From: a virus | Lineage: Duplodnaviria > Heunggongvirae > Uroviricota > Caudoviricetes | Direction: 5' to 3' (one strand) | Length of the DNA: 9,228 nucleotides | Virus record (IMG/VR): IMGVR_UViG_2585427777_000010 | In this document: in pieces, positions 1-7,717 of the stretch | How the letters are laid out: each line of letters begins with the position of its first letter | Numbering within the stretch: position 1 is the first letter of the stretch | Made by a program: the position numbers and the translations under genes | The notes under the pieces: model-generated | Seen by the model: the letters and a program-made list of their open reading frames with translations, nothing else | Databases searched by the model: none | What the model was told of the DNA's origin: nothing

Positions 1-206
1 ACGTCATGGAGCTGAGGCCATGCAGTGACTTCACGTAATGACATCCCCCCGGGGCCGTAAGCCAGCCCCAGACGTAGCAGAGTTGCAGCATCACGAATTT
101 CGCGGCGGCGGGTTAGAGCCCCGGCATTACGTGCCGAAGTATCCAGTTCTTCGGGCTTACCAATATGGGCCAGAATTGCTGACCAGTTATCGTGAGAGTA
201 ATTCAT
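1..206 (-). CDS. insL: IS186 transposase, N-terminal 68 codons (partial; continues beyond window start)
   Basis: Reverse-complement translation from the ATG at 206-204 gives MNYSHDNWSAILAHIGKPEELDTSARNAGALTRRREIRDAATLLRLGLAYGPGGMSLREVTAWPQLHD, which I recognise as the IS186 transposase N-terminus. It is absent from the ORF track because it has no stop inside the window. Confidence 0.85.
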   Translation of the reverse strand, partial: MNYSHDNWSAILAHIGKPEELDTSARNAGALTRRREIRDAATLLRLGLAYGPGGMSLREVTAWPQLHD

Positions 207-238
207 CGGCACGTTAAATCATATCAGGCGTAATACCA

Positions 239-261
239 CAACCCTTAAGTTAGCGCTTATG
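239..261. repeat. IS186 terminal inverted repeat (one end)
   Basis: Plus strand caacccttaagttagcgcttatg is the reverse complement of the remembered IS186 terminus CATAAGCGCTAACTTAAGGGTTG, 33 nt upstream of the transposase ATG. Confidence 0.65.
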
Positions 262-433
262 GGAGCAAATCCCCGCCTCATTAGAGGTCAACGTAGCTTA
301 GAAACCATCAAATTCATCATACATTTTTTTCATATCAACCCCCTCATAGAAATCATAACCACGTTTTGTGGTTTTTGTGACGTATAAACTACATCAAAGG
401 CAAGCCACGGTCAAATATATAGGCATGCTTACC

Positions 434-460
434 TGCACAAAAGTGCACAAATTTGCACAA
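434..460. repeat. Three phased direct repeats of TGCACAA at a 10-bp period, each followed by an A/T tract (fourth copy at 526-532)
   Basis: TGCACAA at 434-440, 444-450 and 454-460, with a fourth GTGCACAAAAAAA at 526-532, in a non-coding region. Confidence 0.6.
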
Positions 461-833
461 TTTTTTTGAACGACTTTTTACCCTTCCGGCCCGCATGGCG
501 GCTGGATCCGTCAAGGATCCGTGCGTGCACAAAAAAACGCGCTTTTTCTGCGCGCAGGTGACGGGGGAACAGCCCGCGTTTCAGGGGGTAAATAGCATTC
601 CCTGAACGATGTCGCAGAGATACAACAGAATGGCTGTATTTCTCACGCTGAGCGTGAAAAAGACGTGAGGGCTTTTGATTTGATGGGGTGAAAGGTAAGG
701 CCGTCAAAATCGCACTGAGACGGCGAGAACATGCAGTCAACGCGGTGGGATTGCGTAAGAGTCTGGCTGTCGATGATGGCAATAAGCAGGAAAGCGTCGT
801 GAAATTATCTGATTGATACAGGAGCTGGAGAGT

Positions 834-884: not shown

Positions 885-1931
885 TCAGGATGTGGGCTGG
901 GTGTCCAGCAGTGCATAAGGGTTAAAGCGGATCACCTCTTCGCCAAGCCAGTCATTGATGTGCTTCATGGCCTCCATGACGGGCATCAGCTCGTTAATTG
1001 CGTAAACCCGCGCGGCCTTCTCCACATCACCAAACGCACTTTTTTCGCCCGGCATCGCCCCCATCAGTTGCGGCGGAACGCGGTGCGCAGCCAGCACATC
1101 ATCACGGGATGCCGCCTTAACATTCATGAACTCATCCTTTGCGGTGATCTGCTGGAACGGCAAAATTTGCACCCCCTCTTTGCCCCCGTTGGGCGCATGG
1201 ATGAGCACGTTTTTAAACGCACCACCACCACGCGCACCCTGTAGCGTTTCTTTCAGGGAGTCCATGCTTTCGCGGTTTACCTGCGCTGCACCGATGTAGA
1301 TGATGCACCCGGCGTGGGATCCATTGTCGTAATACAGTTTTCTGAACATGTCCGCCGAATGAGACAGGCTGGCCGAGAGTAATGCGCCAAGATATTCCGG
1401 CATGCCGTAAATTTCCTGGTTAATGTCAGGATTCATCAGGTGGCACACTTTGCCAGGGCGAAACTGAAACGCGTCCTTGCCATCCTGCACATACCACCAT
1501 GATTCAAGATCGCTTCCGCGTCGCATGTATTTCGCCAGGGCGTGCCGTAATTTAAGCGGTTCGCCGAGCATATTGCTTCGAAGCTCAAGGAATGCGTTAC
1601 CGAACACAAACCAGTCCAGCGCCAGCGCCGAGAAATCCTGCCGGGAAAGCAGCGGGTGCGGAATATAGCAGCCGAGCAATACATTGCGCTTAAAGTAAAG
1701 CGCAGACTGATGCCAGGACGTTTGCCGGGCAGCTCTTGCCAGACCGTACCAGTCCACCGGGGTTTCGTACCACCGCCCGTTATCAGCACAGTACATATTG
1801 TCCAGCAGGTCATGCCCGGTCAGGCGATAAGGACCATCAAATGTGAATGCACTGAGCGATGATTCTTTCCTGAGCGCATCAGCGAGATCAATGCGTGAAC
1901 TCATGCGCACTTTTTTATTTTTTCTGCTCAT
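885..1931 (-). CDS. Q: Phage portal (capsid portal) protein, P2 gpQ-like
   Basis: 348-aa ORF in the position and orientation of P2 Q, immediately downstream of and overlapping the terminase ATPase gene. The Q start ATG (1931-1929) shares one nucleotide with the P stop TGA (1933-1931). Confidence 0.88.
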   Translation of the reverse strand: MSRKNKKVRMSSRIDLADALRKESSLSAFTFDGPYRLTGHDLLDNMYCADNGRWYETPVDWYGLARAARQTSWHQSALYFKRNVLLGCYIPHPLLSRQDFSALALDWFVFGNAFLELRSNMLGEPLKLRHALAKYMRRGSDLESWWYVQDGKDAFQFRPGKVCHLMNPDINQEIYGMPEYLGALLSASLSHSADMFRKLYYDNGSHAGCIIYIGAAQVNRESMDSLKETLQGARGGGAFKNVLIHAPNGGKEGVQILPFQQITAKDEFMNVKAASRDDVLAAHRVPPQLMGAMPGEKSAFGDVEKAARVYAINELMPVMEAMKHINDWLGEEVIRFNPYALLDTQPTS

Positions 1932-3682
1932 CAGAACTCCATAACCGTGAAACGCTCGTTTTCTCCTTCGCCGCCAATCGGTTCGTTAATGACAGCAAGC
2001 ATGGTTGCCCACGCAAGGTCGCCGTGGCTGATCCCCCTCGCTCGGTCCGTTTCGTAAGTGATAAAGCCGCCCGGTGTTTTCACCTTACGCACGGCGTTAA
2101 AGGCCGCGACCAGCTCGCGTTCGGCGCGATCGTATTCCCACCGCCCGGCACGCATTATTTGCAGCATTTTCAGTACCAGCGACCGTTTTGATGACAGCGT
2201 GAAGGTGTACGGAATAGCAGCAGGGAAAAACCGTTTCACTATCTGATAAACAGCCTCCCCGTTCCCGCCCGTCACATCAATGCCGATGTGTTCCACGTTG
2301 TAGCGATACGTGAACTCTTCAATGACTCTGGCCTGTTCTTCAAACTCCAGCCCCTGAACGCGTCGCGTCTCCACCGTTCGAAAACGGCCACCAGGAACAG
2401 CCGGAGGAACCACCACGGACACAGCGCCGCTGTCGCCGTTGCCACTGCTGCCGTTTGCGTCATACCCAATCCATACTGGACGATTCCCCATCGGGCGGGG
2501 AGCAAAAGGTTTCCAGTCTTTCCAGTCGTCGTATCCGTCAACACCGCAGCCAATCAGGATATTCAGGTTAAATGCCGATTCCCCTTCGCGGACAAACTCA
2601 CACATATAGAGATTGAGGAACTCGTCTTCGGTGTTTTCATCACGAATTTCGTCGATATCGGTGTGTTTCCAGCCGTGATTGACCACATCTTCCAGCGTGA
2701 CAATTTGCCGCCATGTCCGGTCAGGGCAGATAAGCCCGTTATGCAGCGTTTTCCAGTCCACAGAAAAACGCTGGCGTTTATGCGAGGCCTTTTTCTCGTT
2801 CCAGCGGTCGCCGTTCCAGTAGGCGTATGCCTCGTGCGTTTCGGTGGATGGCGTGGAGAAGTAGGTGCGCCGCAATCCGCTGAGGGTTGCCATAGCGCCA
2901 GCCACCTTGCGCAGTTCAGCAAAGCGACTGACCCAGAAAAATTCATCAAAATAAAAATTGCCCGTATAGGACTGTGCCGACGCAGCAGAAGTGCCGAGAA
3001 AATGCAGCTCTGCGCCGTTGGAGAGGATGATTTTATCGCCCCCTTTCAGCTCCACATCAACTTCAGCCGCGGCCTTCTGAATAATGCTTTTAAACTGGAA
3101 CGCCTGACGACGCGACGCAGACAAAAAAATCTGGTTACGCTGGTAAGGTTGCGCCACATCGTCACGCAGCGCCATCAGCAGTGCTTCCTGTGCAAAATAC
3201 CAGGTCGCCCCAATCTGTCGGGATTTCAGGATCATCCTGTTACGTATCCCGGCTTCCCTGCAAAGAGTCAGGGAGTCAAACCAGCCCCGCTGATGCCACT
3301 CCAGCCTGCTGATGATTTTTTCCCGCAGTGCAGCAATCTGTTCCGGCGTGAAATGATTTTTAAGTTTTTTCGCCCGGCCTTTCTTTCCTGTGGCCGTCGC
3401 ATCTGGCTGGCCATCATGCAGTTTTTTAAGCTGCCGGGTCAGCAGGTCTATTTCCTTGAAGTCACCACCTGTTTTATTCTGTTTTTCAGTAAGCTGGATG
3501 AGGCGCGCATCGATGGACTGCGTGACACGCTGCACGGGTGGCGTTTCATCCCACTGGTCGCGTTTTTTCCACGCATAAATCGTGTTCGGGTTTATTCCCA
3601 TCAGACGTGAGATTTCTGCGGGCGGATAACCCTGCCAGTAAAGTTGCCGCGCACGCTGGCGCACAAAAGCGTCCTGAATCAT
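1931..3682 (-). CDS. P: Terminase large (ATPase) subunit, P2 gpP-like
   Basis: 583-aa ORF of the size expected for P2 gpP (about 590 aa), transcribed divergently from the O-N-M-L cluster as in P2. A G-rich Shine-Dalgarno (GGGGGAG) precedes the ATG at 3682-3680. Confidence 0.9.
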   Translation of the reverse strand: MIQDAFVRQRARQLYWQGYPPAEISRLMGINPNTIYAWKKRDQWDETPPVQRVTQSIDARLIQLTEKQNKTGGDFKEIDLLTRQLKKLHDGQPDATATGKKGRAKKLKNHFTPEQIAALREKIISRLEWHQRGWFDSLTLCREAGIRNRMILKSRQIGATWYFAQEALLMALRDDVAQPYQRNQIFLSASRRQAFQFKSIIQKAAAEVDVELKGGDKIILSNGAELHFLGTSAASAQSYTGNFYFDEFFWVSRFAELRKVAGAMATLSGLRRTYFSTPSTETHEAYAYWNGDRWNEKKASHKRQRFSVDWKTLHNGLICPDRTWRQIVTLEDVVNHGWKHTDIDEIRDENTEDEFLNLYMCEFVREGESAFNLNILIGCGVDGYDDWKDWKPFAPRPMGNRPVWIGYDANGSSGNGDSGAVSVVVPPAVPGGRFRTVETRRVQGLEFEEQARVIEEFTYRYNVEHIGIDVTGGNGEAVYQIVKRFFPAAIPYTFTLSSKRSLVLKMLQIMRAGRWEYDRAERELVAAFNAVRKVKTPGGFITYETDRARGISHGDLAWATMLAVINEPIGGEGENERFTVMEF

Positions 3683-3836
3683 TGCTCCCCCTGAGTAATT
3701 ACAGGAAGATTACCCGCGCGCGAAACCGTTCTCCTTAACCCCCTGTTCTGGCCGTTTTCTTACAACAAAAGCCCTTTGTATCAGCCTGTTACGCTTTGCC
3801 ATCATGACTGAAGAACCAGTCAGAGGGGCAAAAACT
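3683..3836. promoter_or_regulatory. Divergent intergenic region between P (leftward) and O (rightward); expected site of the two divergent late promoters
   Basis: 154-bp non-coding gap between divergently oriented late genes; in P2 this interval carries the P and O late promoters activated by Ogr. No specific promoter elements could be assigned by eye. Location by synteny only. Confidence 0.4.
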
Positions 3837-4673
3837 ATGGCTAATGAAAAAAAGACATCCCGCAAAAAGTTTCGCGTGGCTGTCTCCGGATCAACTGTTG
3901 ATGGCCGCGAAATCAGTCCGGTGCATCTGCGTGAAGCCGCCGAGAACTTCAACCCGGATGTTTACGCCGCCCGCGTGAACGTTGAGCACTATCTCTCGCC
4001 ATGCCCGTCAAGCGAATTTTCCGCAATGGGCGATGTCACCGCGCTGAGTACGGAAGACATTACGGAAGGTCCGCTGGCCGGACGTACTGCGCTGTATGCA
4101 GAAATCGAACCGACCGAGCGCATGAAGCAGCTTGTCGCGGACGGCAAGAAAATCTATTCCAGTATCGAATTGCACCCGCAGTTCTCCGTTAACGGGCGCG
4201 CCTATCTGGTCGGGCTGGCGATGACCGACACCCCGGCAAGCCTGGGCACTGAACGCCTGAAATTCACGGCACAGCAACGTCAGGCGGTGATGACGTTCAA
4301 CAGTGTCCAGGGTGAAGCACCGCTTATCTCCGAAGCCATCGAGTCTGAAATCATCGAAATGGCAGAACAACGCCAGGAAGAAGGCACCCAGTGGTTTAAC
4401 CGCGTAATGGGGATTATTGGCCGTGGCCGCAAAGCGGATGACGCCAGTTTCTCCCGTATTCAGGAAGCGGTGGAAGGCGTCGCAACGTCACAGGCCGACA
4501 TTATCGACCGCTTTAATGCGCTGGAAACCCGCCATCAGCAGGACAGCCAGAAAATCACTTTACTGACCACAGAGCTGACAGCACTGAAGGAAAAACTGCG
4601 CACGCAGGACGGCGATCCGCAGAACCGGTTCACCGCAACGGGCGCAGCCTCCGATCAACTGGCTGACTTCTGA
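3837..4673 (+). CDS. O: Capsid scaffolding protein, P2 gpO-like
   Basis: Start chosen at the ATG at 3837 (MANEKKTSRKKFRVAVSG...), preceded by GAGGGG, rather than the track start at 3804. P2 gpO-like N-terminus, about 279 aa, with a C-terminal coiled-coil/charged region. Confidence 0.88.
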   Translation: MANEKKTSRKKFRVAVSGSTVDGREISPVHLREAAENFNPDVYAARVNVEHYLSPCPSSEFSAMGDVTALSTEDITEGPLAGRTALYAEIEPTERMKQLVADGKKIYSSIELHPQFSVNGRAYLVGLAMTDTPASLGTERLKFTAQQRQAVMTFNSVQGEAPLISEAIESEIIEMAEQRQEEGTQWFNRVMGIIGRGRKADDASFSRIQEAVEGVATSQADIIDRFNALETRHQQDSQKITLLTTELTALKEKLRTQDGDPQNRFTATGAASDQLADF

Positions 4674-4696
4674 TAAGACAAAGGAGCAAATTTTTT

Positions 4697-5749
4697 ATGA
4701 ATCTGGTGATGTCAGATATTACCCGCAACAAGCTGGGTTGCTATATGGCGCAGCAGGCGTCGCTTAACAATATCCCGGTTTCCGCACTGGTATCGCGATT
4801 TACCGTGGAACCCGCGGTGCAGCAACGTTTTGAAAACGCCTCAAAGGAAAGTACCGAATTTACGAAAAGAATTAACGTGATCGGCGTGACCGACCAGAAA
4901 GGCGAAAAAATCCTCCTGGACACCACCGGGCCAATTGCGCGCACGAATAGCAGTTATGACGGCATCAAACGCCGTAACCCGAATAACGTGATCGATATGA
5001 AGTCTCGTCAGTACCAGTGCGAACAGGTGAACTACGATACCTTTATTTCGTACCCACAGCTTGATACCTGGGCGGCCCACAGCGATTTTCAGTCCCGTAT
5101 CAGTACACAGATCGCCCGGCAGGTAGCGCTTGATCGCATCATGATTGGCTTTAACGGCACATCCCACGCCTACGAGTCTGATTTTCACACCAACAAGCTG
5201 CTTCAGGACGTAAACGTGGGCTGGCTGGAGCACATCAGAACCGATGCCAGCGAGCGCGTAATGAATGACGTGACGCTGACCTCCCGCAACATGGACAACA
5301 CTGTGGCGCACGCGGGTAAGTATGCGAATGCCGATGCTCTGGTACAGGATGCGCGCTCATCCCTGCTGGATGAATGGCACAAGGAAGCTGACGACCTCGT
5401 GGTGATTATGGGGCGCAACCTGTTTAACTCGCTGCGTCTGCCCGTGCTGAACAGCATCAGCGGCCAGAATCCCAATGCGGAATTACTTGCCGGACAGCTC
5501 ATCCTGTCATCGCGCGCCATTGGCGGACTGGATGTATTCCTTGCGCCGTTCTTCCCGGATTCAACGATGCTGATCACCTCGTTCAACAACCTGTCGATTT
5601 ACTGGCAGAAAGGTTCAATGCGTCGCCTGATGAAAGACGAGCCGGAATACAACCGCATCGCCACCTACCAGTCCATCAATGACGCTTATGTCGTTGAAGA
5701 CTATGGCAAGTGCGCGATGATCACTGGCCTGAAGTTCGCCGACAGCTAA
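4697..5749 (+). CDS. N: Major capsid protein, P2 gpN-like
   Basis: 350 aa, with blocks resembling P2 gpN (FTVEP, GEKI, NYDTFISY, IMIGFNG, DYASLDALV-like DALVQDA, LSIYW, YVVEDY). AAGGAG Shine-Dalgarno 10 nt upstream of the ATG at 4697. Confidence 0.92.
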   Translation: MNLVMSDITRNKLGCYMAQQASLNNIPVSALVSRFTVEPAVQQRFENASKESTEFTKRINVIGVTDQKGEKILLDTTGPIARTNSSYDGIKRRNPNNVIDMKSRQYQCEQVNYDTFISYPQLDTWAAHSDFQSRISTQIARQVALDRIMIGFNGTSHAYESDFHTNKLLQDVNVGWLEHIRTDASERVMNDVTLTSRNMDNTVAHAGKYANADALVQDARSSLLDEWHKEADDLVVIMGRNLFNSLRLPVLNSISGQNPNAELLAGQLILSSRAIGGLDVFLAPFFPDSTMLITSFNNLSIYWQKGSMRRLMKDEPEYNRIATYQSINDAYVVEDYGKCAMITGLKFADS

Positions 5750-5758
5750 TCAACTCAC

Positions 5759-5777
5759 GGCGGGCATCATGCCCGCC
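5759..5777 (+). other. Perfect GC-rich hairpin between the major capsid and small terminase genes
   Basis: ggcgggcat-c-atgcccgcc, 9 nt after the N stop and not followed by a T-tract; likely an mRNA 3' stabiliser or partial attenuator. Confidence 0.45.
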
Positions 5778-5794
5778 TGTAACGGAGAGAAAAA

Positions 5795-6595
5795 ATGATT
5801 ACTCCTGCACAACAACACTGGCAGAACGTGATGGCACAGCGCGCAGGCCGGGCGAATGAAGGTGTGGACCACGCCGCGCGTACCGCGCATGAAGAGGTGC
5901 TGTATCGTCTGCGTCTGGCACAGGCCAGGCTAAAGGGCGTACAGGCCAGAAGCGCGAAAGCCGCCATCAAAAAAGAGTTGTTGCCGGACTTTTCCGGCTG
6001 GATTGAGGGAACGCTGGAGACTGACGGCGGGCAACAGGACGAAGTAATTGCCACGCTGATGGTGTGGGCGATTGACTGCGGCGATCTTCCGCTGGCGCTG
6101 CGTATTGGTGCATATATGGTCCGTCACAACCTCATCATGCCGGATAACTTTGGCCGTACTGCTGCCACGGTACTGACCGAAGAAATCTGCAACCCGGTAC
6201 TGACGCAGGCCGGGACGGATGCCGACGCGGATTTATCCGCCTTTATCGAACCACTGGACACACTTTGGGAAATTGTCGCCAACCAGGACATGCCGGACGA
6301 AGTGCGCGCCAAATTATGCAAGGCGTGTGCCTTTGCCCGTCGTGGCCTGACCGATGCAGACAACATGGCCTCATCACTGAAGCTGCTGCGCGAAGCGATG
6401 CACCTGAACCCGAACGCAGGTGTGAAACGCGAGATTGCAACCCTTTCCCGCGCCCTGAAAAAAGCCGATTCCGCAGCCGCACCAGAAGACGCCAGCGCAC
6501 AGCAGACGCAGGACGAAAGCAGCAAAAGTAAAAAGACAACGCAGAAGCCTGCAACACGAAAAACCACCGCGACGCAGAAGGCAAAGCGCGGTTAA
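5795..6595 (+). CDS. M: Terminase small (endonuclease) subunit, P2 gpM-like
   Basis: 266 aa with an N-terminus (MITPAQQHW...) and internal motif (DMPDEVRAKL) resembling P2 gpM, and a basic low-complexity C-terminal tail. GGAGAG Shine-Dalgarno precedes the ATG. Confidence 0.85.
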   Translation: MITPAQQHWQNVMAQRAGRANEGVDHAARTAHEEVLYRLRLAQARLKGVQARSAKAAIKKELLPDFSGWIEGTLETDGGQQDEVIATLMVWAIDCGDLPLALRIGAYMVRHNLIMPDNFGRTAATVLTEEICNPVLTQAGTDADADLSAFIEPLDTLWEIVANQDMPDEVRAKLCKACAFARRGLTDADNMASSLKLLREAMHLNPNAGVKREIATLSRALKKADSAAAPEDASAQQTQDESSKSKKTTQKPATRKTTATQKAKRG

Positions 6596-6612
6596 CGACT
6601 GACCCCGTCAGC

Positions 6613-6683
6613 GGGCGGCGTGCGCGGTGTTCCGGTTTGACTCCGTGACCGTTTACACCGCGCACCCACCGCCCGATTTTTTC
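6613..6683 (+). terminator. Long imperfect hairpin followed by a T6 run between M and L; candidate intrinsic terminator or attenuator
   Basis: Perfect 11-bp inverted repeat gtgcgcggtgt (6620-6630) / acaccgcgcac (6655-6665), extended by gggcgg (6613-6618) / ccgccc (6669-6674), then gattttttc (6675-6683). Confidence 0.4.
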
Positions 6684-6696
6684 AGGAGTGAACCCC

Positions 6697-7191
6697 ATGA
6701 GTATGGTTGCCAGAACTAACCCCGGCCCCGCAGAGGACGACATCACCGACACCGATGATGGCGATACCCGTATTTCAGCGGGTGCATTCTGGCCGGATAT
6801 TGTGCTGCGCGAGCTGCGTCTGGCGGTACGACTGCCGGGCCGCGTGACCACCTCCCGCCTGCTGCATACCGCCACCGGGGCCATAGCACACGTTACCCGC
6901 GAGCTGGAAGCATGGCAGCAGGAACAACAGGCGGCTGGCTATCAGACGCTGGCCGATGTTCCGGCCCCTGTAATTAACGGAGAAAGCGTCAATCTCTGGC
7001 ACTGGCGCAATGCTGTTTATACCGCCACACGCGCCCTGATTCTGGAGCGTTACCGCGATGCGGACACAACGGACAAGGGCGACCGCCGGGCGGACGCACT
7101 GGATATACAGACATCGGATTTGTGGCGCGATGTGAGCTGGGCCATCTCTGACATTCTGGGACGACCGCGAATGTTTGCGGAGCTGTGCTGA
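6697..7191 (+). CDS. L: Head completion/stabilisation protein, P2 gpL-like
   Basis: Start taken at the ATG at 6697 (MSMVARTN...), 8 nt after a CAGGAG Shine-Dalgarno; the track start at 6688 is a GTG. About 165 aa, similar to P2 gpL (169 aa). The stop TGA (7189-7191) overlaps the next start. Confidence 0.85.
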   Translation: MSMVARTNPGPAEDDITDTDDGDTRISAGAFWPDIVLRELRLAVRLPGRVTTSRLLHTATGAIAHVTRELEAWQQEQQAAGYQTLADVPAPVINGESVNLWHWRNAVYTATRALILERYRDADTTDKGDRRADALDIQTSDLWRDVSWAISDILGRPRMFAELC

Positions 7192-7391
7192 TGAAAGTGA
7201 AGGCACTGGAAGGCGACACCGTGGATTCGCTCTGTTTCCGATACTACGGCACGACACAGGGCGTCACCGAAAAGGTGCTGGATGCCAACCCCGGACTCTG
7301 TCAGCAGGTATTTCTGGACGCCGGGCAGGAAGTGGAGATGCCGGAGCCGGAGAAGAAGAAACGAGAAATGATTCAGTTGTGGGGGGAGTAG
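7191..7391 (+). CDS. X: Tail protein X (LysM-like), P2 gpX-like
   Basis: 66-aa product MKVKALEGDTVDSLCFRYYGTTQGVTEKVLDANPGL... resembles P2 gpX (67 aa). Its ATG at 7191 overlaps the gpL stop (TGATG). Confidence 0.8.
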   Translation: MKVKALEGDTVDSLCFRYYGTTQGVTEKVLDANPGLCQQVFLDAGQEVEMPEPEKKKREMIQLWGE

Positions 7392-7393
7392 CA

Positions 7394-7717
7394 GTGAGCA
7401 CCATTCAAACAGGGATCACAGAGCAGGTTATTGCGTGGCTCTTTGACCACCTGCCAACGGTGTATGCAGTAGGCGCGGCGGTCAGCATTTCCGCGCTGAT
7501 GAGTCTTTATGACGGACGAACACTGGTTCAGACCGTAACGGGATCGCTGGCGTGCGGCGTTCTTGCCATGGCCGTGGCCGGGTCGCTGCGCTTCTTCGGG
7601 ATCCCTGAGGATGCAGTGACGTTTTTTGGTGCCTCAATCGGTTTTATGGGCGCAGAGAAAGCACGCGACAAGGTTATTGCAATATTTGATCGCAGGGTGA
7701 AGGAGAGGAACGAATGA
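7394..7717 (+). CDS. Y: Holin (class I-like, three predicted transmembrane segments), in the position of P2 gpY
   Basis: Translation from the GTG at 7394 (GGGGGGAG Shine-Dalgarno just upstream) gives three hydrophobic segments (VIAWLFDHLPTVYAVGAAVSISALMSL; SLACGVLAMAVAGSLRFF; VTFFGASIGFMGA) and a charged C-terminus (EKARDKVIAIFDRRVKERNE). The start is uncertain: GTG 7379 or ATG 7463 are alternatives. The long track ORF 7175-7717 is an out-of-frame upstream extension over X. Confidence 0.6.
   Translation: MSTIQTGITEQVIAWLFDHLPTVYAVGAAVSISALMSLYDGRTLVQTVTGSLACGVLAMAVAGSLRFFGIPEDAVTFFGASIGFMGAEKARDKVIAIFDRRVKERNE

Follow-up and report, generated by a model that had tools for sequence, protein, structure and literature searches.

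A 9,228-nt stretch of viral DNA from the IMG/VR record IMGVR_UViG_2585427777_000010 (referred to here as the window) opens inside a copy of the insertion sequence (IS) IS186. Comparison with related prophages makes it very probable that a full-length, 1,339-bp IS186 transposed into the GGGG-AGCAAAT-CCCC terminator of the cargo hot spot of a P88-like prophage, leaving an 11-bp duplication and harming no open reading frame (ORF), cos sequence or late gene. The IS event itself is ordinary and routine. Its main use is as a pointer: the insertion flags an internal terminator within a module, common in P2-family hot spots, that consists of a so far unannotated micro-ORF, the terminator and a DUF4760 gene and that appears to be undescribed.

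IS186 and its target site

Positions 1 to 261 are the left end of IS186/IS421, matching 2,759 E. coli records, K-12 strains among them, at 99.6% identity over the full length. K-12 is known to carry three IS186 copies, and the three matching places found in MG1655, and likewise in each K-12 strain, agree with this number. Across genomes, the number of places matching IS186 varies from 1 to 22, with a median of 3. Among the 5,426 complete E. coli genomes that we searched, the best match to positions 1 to 261 was again 99.6%, with none at 100%; at position 17, the window has a private G where every other copy has C, which changes transposase residue 64 from alanine to proline (A64P).

1 to 261, minus strand: left end of IS186/IS421, clipped by the window edge
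206 (ATG) to position 1 and past it, minus strand: N-terminus of the IS186 transposase, translation MNYSHDNWSAILAHIGKPEELDTSARNAG
239 to 261, minus strand: 23-bp terminal inverted repeat of IS186, CATAAGCGCTAACTTAAGGGTTG (the reverse complement of 239 to 261)
262 to 272: right copy of the 11-bp target-site duplication, GGAGCAAATCC

The transposase start codon is preceded by 55 nt of leader and inverted repeat, and the 68 N-terminal residues encoded in the window (MNYSHDNW...TAWPQLHD) match the IS186 transposase except for A64P. The full-length protein, as found in the IS-bearing strain MDR_56 (L001 in our locus numbering), contains a DDE_Tnp_1 domain (PF01609), scores 133 bits against NF033592, for which the NCBIfam IS4 cut-off is 115, and bears the RefSeq product name IS4-like element IS421 family transposase.

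Because the window opens inside the IS, the left junction and the cargo beyond it were seen only in relatives with the same insertion, which we drew, together with IS-free relatives such as strain SWHEFF_68 (L002), from the complete E. coli genomes. Combining both kinds of relatives, the empty site reads GGCGGGGAGCAAATCCCCGCC, or, in a longer read from SWHEFF_68, aaaaaaGGCGGGGAGCAAATCCCCGCCtcatt. In MDR_56, the filled site runs from GGCGGGGAGCAAATCC through the IS into GGAGCAAATCCCCGCC; in the window's own genome, the left junction, which lies outside the window, would accordingly be expected to join GGCGGGGAGCAAATCC to CATAAGCG. In the window, GGAGCAAATCCCCGCC (262 to 277) abuts the IS and comprises the right copy of the duplication plus the remaining C-run. 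The duplication is evident from the empty site of SWHEFF_68 and both junctions of MDR_56, and would be 13 bp long if the terminal C/G of the IS were counted as target. Indeed, the same GGAGCAAATCC duplication and the same element length were found in 8/8 loci with both IS ends readable, across both orientations. While the window shows one inverted repeat, these eight loci (MDR_56 and seven others) also show the second 23-bp repeat bounding the 1,339-bp element.

The empty site is a perfect GGGG-N7-CCCC match to the published IS186 target rule, 5′-GGGG(N6/N7)CCCC-3′, under which the element inserts in either orientation and repeatedly at one site (Lee et al. 2016, PMC5009759). Only two GGGG-N6/7-CCCC motifs exist in 16.7 kb of IS-free SWHEFF_68 sequence, and the IS occupies one of them; its placement is thus not chance.

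All relatives have, on the left side of the insertion point, a minus-strand operon encoding a DUF4760 protein (165 amino acids, single N-terminal transmembrane helix) and a multi-pass membrane protein of 280 amino acids, followed in the relatives by ParM/StbB-like genes and then the replication gene gpA. On the minus strand of the empty site, GAGGCGGGGA-UUUGC-UCCCCGCCUU followed by UUUUUUAU is predicted to form a 10-bp GC-rich hairpin with a U-tract, and this predicted hairpin is lost at both junctions after insertion. The IS thus splits a predicted intrinsic terminator whose two arms are the G-run and the C-run. The terminator sits between the micro-ORF (on the right, in the window) and the DUF4760 operon (on the left, outside it), whose first start codon lies 13 nt beyond the U-tract; no ORF is cut by the insertion.

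262 to 280, minus strand: remnant of the split predicted terminator (5′ arm, loop and 3 nt of the 3′ arm; U-tract UUUUUU on the intact site)
283 to 292, minus strand: anti-Shine-Dalgarno-like box GTTGACCTCT, conserved in our alignment A1 and complementary to the Shine-Dalgarno sequence of the micro-ORF
298 to 333, minus strand: micro-ORF of 11 codons, MKKMYDEFDGF-stop, with a strong Shine-Dalgarno sequence at 334 to 346
386 to 414, minus strand: candidate promoter of the micro-ORF and DUF4760 operon (−35 TTGACC at 414 to 409, 17-nt spacer, −10 TAGTTT at 391 to 386)

The host is identified as a P88-like P2-family prophage (Xuanwuvirus, Peduoviridae) by its nucleotide identity (92 to 97% to P88, P88_4B11, Shae_phiSM and others) and its P2-family gene order, in which Q-P runs leftward and O-N-M-L-X-holin-endolysin rightward. 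The insertion falls within the gpA-gpQ hot spot as described by Rousset et al. (2022, PMC9122126): across relatives, differing cargos occupy the interval between gpA and gpQ beside cos, and the supplement of that paper lists this very cargo arrangement and gives the accession of the DUF4760 protein 164 times. In P2 (NC_001895), the same interval holds old-tin, read leftward from a promoter ~150 nt from cosR. The cargo described here similarly lies between gpA and gpQ on the minus strand and would be read leftward from a promoter between cos and cargo; unlike old-tin, it consists of the DUF4760 gene, the gene for its 280-residue partner and the ParM/StbB-like genes, preceded by a micro-ORF and a terminator.

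A first-pass annotation of this DNA had anticipated much of the above: a minus-strand IS186 transposase gene at the window's left edge, an IS end at about 261 against a G-run/C-run target, some 620 bp from the portal gene (we measure 624 bp, from 261 to the portal stop codon at 885), and a position near cos that corresponds to the old/tin hot spot of P2. All of these hold. The second inverted repeat and a duplication of 8 to 12 bp, which it proposed to look for, exist in relatives, as does the pre-insertion sequence; the DNA left of the IS is, as read there, phage sequence. Its further suggestion that cargo was disrupted or separated from the late region needs to be amended, for no ORF is disrupted, and what the operon has been separated from is its own promoter, micro-ORF and terminator.

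Occupancy of the site and consequences for the cargo

Using junction-specific queries against the 5,426 complete genomes, we found the site in 289, of which 280 were empty and 9 (~3%) carried IS186 at the identical base pair. The window's orientation (A) was present in five records from four strains, and the opposite orientation (B), at the same base pair, in four records. With 9/289 genomes sharing the exact base pair and records split 5:4 across both orientations, the site is a recurrent IS186 hot spot. The cargo ORFs are unaltered in IS-bearing genomes, the WP accessions of their proteins being shared with IS-free genomes, which suggests that the insertions are recent.

IS186 hot spots have been described in mutation-accumulation lines, at fimA, menC and other loci (Lee et al. 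2016, PMC5009759), and the present site shares with them the element, the GGGG(N6/N7)CCCC rule, repeated insertion in both orientations and a core-spanning duplication. It differs from earlier hot spots in that it belongs to an accessory locus of a temperate phage, and in that a terminator stem is struck rather than a promoter or coding region. Such a promoter, that of lon in E. coli B, was reportedly recognized as an IS186 hot spot by SaiSree et al. in 2001. We found no prior description of this particular site in the searchable literature. It adds a phage-borne site to a short list, and illustrates that the sequence preference of a mobile element can coincide with a terminator stem. A preprint does tie IS186 to intrinsic terminators.

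The insertion puts 1.35 kb between the DUF4760 start codon and the candidate promoter and micro-ORF upstream. In the window's orientation, transposase gene and cargo are read in the same direction, and from the transposase stop codon to the end of the IS the cargo strand holds no predicted strong terminator. Given these two features, the cargo should still be transcribable through read-through from the micro-ORF or the transposase promoter, minus its own terminator, while the micro-ORF transcript would now enter the transposase gene. IS186 also contains a strand-specific, terminator-like hairpin, predicted as GCCGGAAAGGGAGCTCCGGC followed by a T-run. In the opposite orientation, the GCCGGAAAGGGAGCTCCGGC hairpin would oppose the incoming transcript, probably silencing the cargo.

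Might the insertion be kept by selection, as a genetic switch that silences or rewires a costly or toxic DUF4760 module? The terminator that was struck probably governs cargo expression, ~3% of the genomes carrying the site are occupied, and a GGGG-N6/7-CCCC stem is kept in many lineages (12/19 leaders). However, GC-rich stems are to be expected in any terminator, and a recent, neutral hot-spot insertion agrees with both the near-equal representation of the orientations and cargo ORFs that are intact and share their WP accessions with IS-free genomes. On this evidence, we regard selection as improbable.

Number and origin of the insertions

The occupied and empty sites fall into three types of prophage backbone. 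Type 1 comprises MDR_56 and MSI001, both with the window's orientation, and the empty SWHEFF_68. Type 2, distinguished by an additional 525-bp gene beside the portal gene, comprises LS4 (window's orientation), an ST131 isolate (opposite orientation) and phage vB_EcoM-705R2 (empty). Type 3 is a degraded remnant, with the window's orientation in H1827/12 and the IMG/VR contig L057, and the opposite one in E100341 and AST19. Finally, AST205 carries the opposite orientation, in flanks outside this typing.

Since both orientations exist with an identical 11-bp duplication, there must have been at least two insertion events. Types 1 and 2 and the window have flanks that agree at every base over 1,500 nt leftward and at least 360 nt rightward of the IS, meaning that same-orientation insertions on these backbones could have a single origin. 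The type 3 flanks diverge at 60 nt on the right side of the IS and at 269 nt on the left; both orientations are nevertheless found on this backbone. With both orientations within type 2 and again within type 3, and with the type 3 flank differing at 60 nt, backbone comparison makes about four events likely.

These same observations bear on the idea that a single ancestral insertion was passed on by descent or recombination and that the site is no hot spot at all. Every IS copy at the site is identical, as are the flanks of types 1 and 2 and the window over the lengths just given, and the mosaic late genes of the window imply frequent recombination around cos, all of which would suit a single origin. 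Nonetheless, two orientations with the same duplication demand at least two events, both are found inside type 2 and inside type 3, the latter differing 60 nt from the IS, and repeated insertion in both orientations is documented IS186 behaviour (PMC5009759); a single origin is thus very unlikely.

In all seven occupied records that we inspected, as well as in contig L057, the flanks are contiguous across the IS, for which reason we expect, with high confidence, contiguous flanks in the window's genome too. This also leaves only a slim chance that a later IS-mediated deletion or inversion occurred in that genome and that the DNA to the left is something other than the DUF4760 cargo, even though the window begins within the IS, IS186 offers 1 to 22 places per genome (median 3) open to recombination, and IS-IS recombination is common (PMC5009759).

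Two observations concern individual strains. H1827/12, E100341 and AST19 (L005, L063 and L065) carry the same remnant, with truncated gpA and terminase genes, and yet IS186 is inserted one way in one strain and reversed in the other two. In MSI001 (NZ_CP076645.1), the left IS/DUF4760 junction occurs both at ~1,248,655 and at ~1,591,000, about 340 kb apart. A split of the two junctions was considered for this strain and dismissed, the insertion being contiguous there; the doubled left junction points to either a duplicate of the IS-bearing prophage region or a rearrangement.

The probable cos region next to the insertion

On the other side of the candidate promoter, the window contains a set of elements reminiscent of the P2 cos region.

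434 to 532, plus strand: four TGCACAA direct repeats (starts 434, 444, 454 and 526), with spacing that parallels P2
538 to 554, plus strand: GC hairpin preceding the candidate cleavage site
557 to 575, plus strand: candidate cos cleavage 19-mer GGTGACGGGGGAACAGCCC, matching the P2 cos 19-mer at 13/19 positions

With both strands considered, no other stretch of the window matches the P2 cos 19-mer as well as GGTGACGGGGGAACAGCCC. Relative to position 557, the TGCACAA repeats start at −123, −113, −103 and −31; in P2, TGCAT repeats lie at −123, −111, −101 and −29 relative to the 19-nt cohesive end, again with a GC hairpin ahead of the end. The two regions thus share four repeats, a GC hairpin, a G-rich 19-mer and near-base-for-base spacing, without detectable homology: BLAST against P2 cos returned short words only, and the best of these, a 10-mer (E=0.2) in the terminator hairpin and on the wrong strand, was treated as chance. 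By analogy with P2, the TGCACAA repeats and hairpin are probably the terminase-recognition elements of cos, and positions 434 to 575 probably the cos of Xuanwuvirus, whose conserved backbone starts at ~434. A mechanically called minus-strand ORF of 117 codons with a TTG start (429 to 782) runs across the repeats and also across the candidate cleavage site; no relative has it annotated, and it is probably not a gene.

Between the IS and the first repeat lie 173 bp, the distance to the inferred cleavage site is 296 bp, and positions 262 to 669 do not differ from those of IS-free relatives. The first-pass annotation had raised the possibility of damaged packaging sequences and a defective prophage. 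We find no support for this, since the repeats and the candidate cosN are unchanged and the late genes, 11 of 11, are full length without frameshifts. Moreover, Xuanwuvirus genomes range from 31 to 37.6 kb, so that an additional 1.35 kb should be tolerated. The phage should therefore remain inducible and package its DNA.

That the insertion inactivated the prophage, whether through a damaged packaging signal or an over-long genome, nevertheless deserves a closer look, given that the IS lies just ~300 bp from the inferred cos and that three IS-bearing strains (H1827/12, E100341 and AST19) harbor a degraded remnant with truncated gpA and terminase. Each of these points has a counterpart. The repeats and the candidate cosN, which are identical in IS-free relatives, begin 173 bp from the IS, and the equivalent P2 elements span ~125 bp to the right of cosN; no late gene is shortened; ~33.7 kb plus 1.35 kb falls inside the range of the genus; and the decay of the remnant consists of deletions elsewhere, not at the IS. 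Inactivation by the insertion is hence a remote prospect.

Several points weigh against the reading of a harmless transposition into a cargo terminator, or at least against parts of it. Neither the left junction nor the cargo is seen in the window's own genome, where the sequence starts within the IS. The placement of cos follows from architectural analogy with P2, not from homology or end-mapping, and the sole public record that breaks nearby, P88_4B11, breaks at 478/479 and not at 557. (We did not adopt the P88_4B11 break as a mapped cos end, as it has no terminal redundancy.) Every statement on expression rests on predicted promoters and terminators, and a literature search for outward promoters of, or read-through from, IS186 yielded nothing usable. 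Lastly, a strong terminator precedes DUF4760, and normal transcription of the operon would have to pass it.

A conserved micro-ORF/terminator/DUF4760 module

We asked how widely the arrangement at the insertion site is conserved. Searching with the DUF4760 protein alone, we found 11 full-length loci from eight other enterobacterial genera, plus 57 loci in IMG/VR; Citrobacter phage Shae_phiSM was also included. The micro-ORF was seen in the window (298 to 333, minus strand), in SWHEFF_68 (~8036 to 8071) and in loci L006, L012 to L022 and L076 to L132. In all 40 unique, uninterrupted upstream regions from IMG/VR, a micro-ORF of 8 to 20 codons ends in (D/E)(E/N)x(D/E)G(F/Y)-stop, and in all 40, a hairpin followed by a T-run lies 16 to 59 nt past its stop codon. 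This layout, with the hairpin always placed between micro-ORF and DUF4760 gene, holds for every homologue that we examined, down to 32% protein identity. The hairpin stems themselves are unrelated in sequence (GGCGGGG..., GCGGAGCC..., CGGGGCC..., GATCGGAGG..., AATGGAGAC... and others), and that of the Citrobacter phage, GGCGGAGA...TCTCCGCC, is without G4/C4 runs.

In 13 loci retrieved without reference to the micro-ORF (11 with the DUF4760 protein as query and two by DNA similarity), the DEFDGF codons vary at 6/6 third positions versus 2/12 first and second positions (P=0.0015), which indicates selection on the peptide. The reverse search, using the 3′ end of the micro-ORF, retrieved 35 viral contigs, nearly all with a DUF4760 homologue downstream. 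Three contexts (L036; L037, L048 and L053; L059) show the micro-ORF pattern without a downstream DUF4760 gene and may be chance matches or independent copies. The acidic-aromatic C-terminus of the peptide resembles the C-terminal tails of SSB proteins. The literature held nothing relevant on the peptide string DEFDGF, and a search of Rfam gave SorX only, below threshold (19 bits, versus a gathering score of 46.6).

The assignment of a candidate promoter at 386 to 414 is based on its consensus and conservation, the pattern TTGAC(T/C)-N17-TA(A/G)TTT being found in 22/37 unique upstream regions across genera. A promoter scan gave a single minus-strand match elsewhere (−35 at 381 to 376, −10 at 357 to 352), which is not conserved in other genera and was set aside. 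An inverted repeat, ATTACC-N5-GGTAAT, often covers the spacer and −10 element of the micro-ORF promoter in an operator-like fashion; it was seen upstream in L013, L015, L021, L034, L035, L044 and L046, and is degenerate in the E. coli version.

Downstream of the micro-ORF, the conserved box GTTGACCTCT can be inferred to be an anti-Shine-Dalgarno element; predicted duplex energies lie between −9 and −12 kcal/mol for most lineages, which is only a modest improvement on shuffled spacers. In addition, a 4- to 5-bp hairpin places the micro-ORF stop codon in its loop (columns 57 to 70 of alignment A1; ~294 to 307 of the window, minus strand), with compensatory CG-to-UA changes joining synonymous codon positions to bases beyond the stop. 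The ribosome binding site of the micro-ORF is strong, whereas that of DUF4760 (GGAUGA, 5 to 6 nt from the ATG) is weak.

How might such a module work? In ToxIN-type (type III) loci, a terminator between antitoxin and toxin fixes their ratio. The present module resembles them in having a small upstream element with strong signals, an internal intrinsic terminator and a weakly translated putative effector, and in being borne on a mobile element; unlike in ToxIN, the upstream element is an ORF of 8 to 20 codons rather than an RNA repeat array. That the peptide acts in trans as a partner of DUF4760 seems to us to have a little less than an even chance. More tentatively, one may picture a three-part module of translated micro-ORF, internal terminator and weakly translated DUF4760, in which the peptide would work in trans like an antitoxin or cofactor, the terminator would set the ratio as in ToxIN, and IS186 would uncouple the two halves, with orientation-dependent effects on the cargo. 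In such a module, the uncoupling by IS186 would recur because the stem of many lineages happens to be GGGG-N6/7-CCCC. Should the peptide and DUF4760 prove to be a toxin-antitoxin-like or defence pair, three natural alleles would already exist: empty, orientation A and orientation B.

A second option, a cis-acting leader, appears unlikely. A short ORF with a strong Shine-Dalgarno sequence and an intrinsic terminator just before a structural gene is also the layout of leader-peptide attenuators of the trpL, pheL and pyrL type, and all 40 upstream regions conform to it. However, neither single-sequence nor alignment folds gave an antiterminator alternative, the distance from stop codon to hairpin is variable (16 to 59 nt), and a conserved acidic-aromatic C-terminus takes the place of a regulatory codon run; both the missing antiterminator and the variable spacing argue against a classical ribosome-position attenuator.

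Of the cargo proteins, DUF4760 had no match in PADLOC, and its 280-residue partner a weak one to Csx27 (E=1e-5). Neither protein had a match in NCBIfam or in a sequence search of PDB, the literature held nothing relevant on them, and PHROGs classes both as of unknown function. By these four resources (PADLOC, NCBIfam, PDB and literature), the cargo does not belong to a known defence family.

Gene content and mosaicism of the prophage

The remainder of the window consists of the late region, with the portal and large terminase genes on the minus strand and genes for scaffold, capsid, small terminase, head completion protein, tail X, holin, endolysin and LysB/C on the plus strand.

835 to 857: palindromic hairpin GGGGCATAAATTTTTTATGCCCC, 27 nt beyond the portal stop codon
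885 to 1931, minus strand: intact portal gene (gpQ), 100% identical over 348 amino acids to the RefSeq portal protein of MDR_56
1931 to 3682, minus strand: large terminase gene, full length

By analogy with P2, the hairpin at 835 to 857 is likely the equivalent of the tQ terminator. A second small variable spot lies beside the portal stop codon, at ~886 to 904, where type 2 relatives have the extra 525-bp gene (L003, 4960 to 5484; L064, 5638 to 6162; WP_000236495, hypothetical) and the window has none.

No complete E. coli genome is more than 98.5% identical to the window overall. Its late region (3800 to 9228) is mosaic, which points to recombination near cos: the capsid is 94.6% identical to that of the type 1 relative sharing the IS flank, and 100% identical to capsids of prophages with other cargos (zf-C4_ClpX and others). 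The exact capsid protein recurs in 2,619 blocks of the collection, most of which carry other cargos. Further along, the LysB-like DUF2570 protein encoded at 8103 to 8495 differs from that of the type 1 relative by an in-frame deletion of four amino acids.

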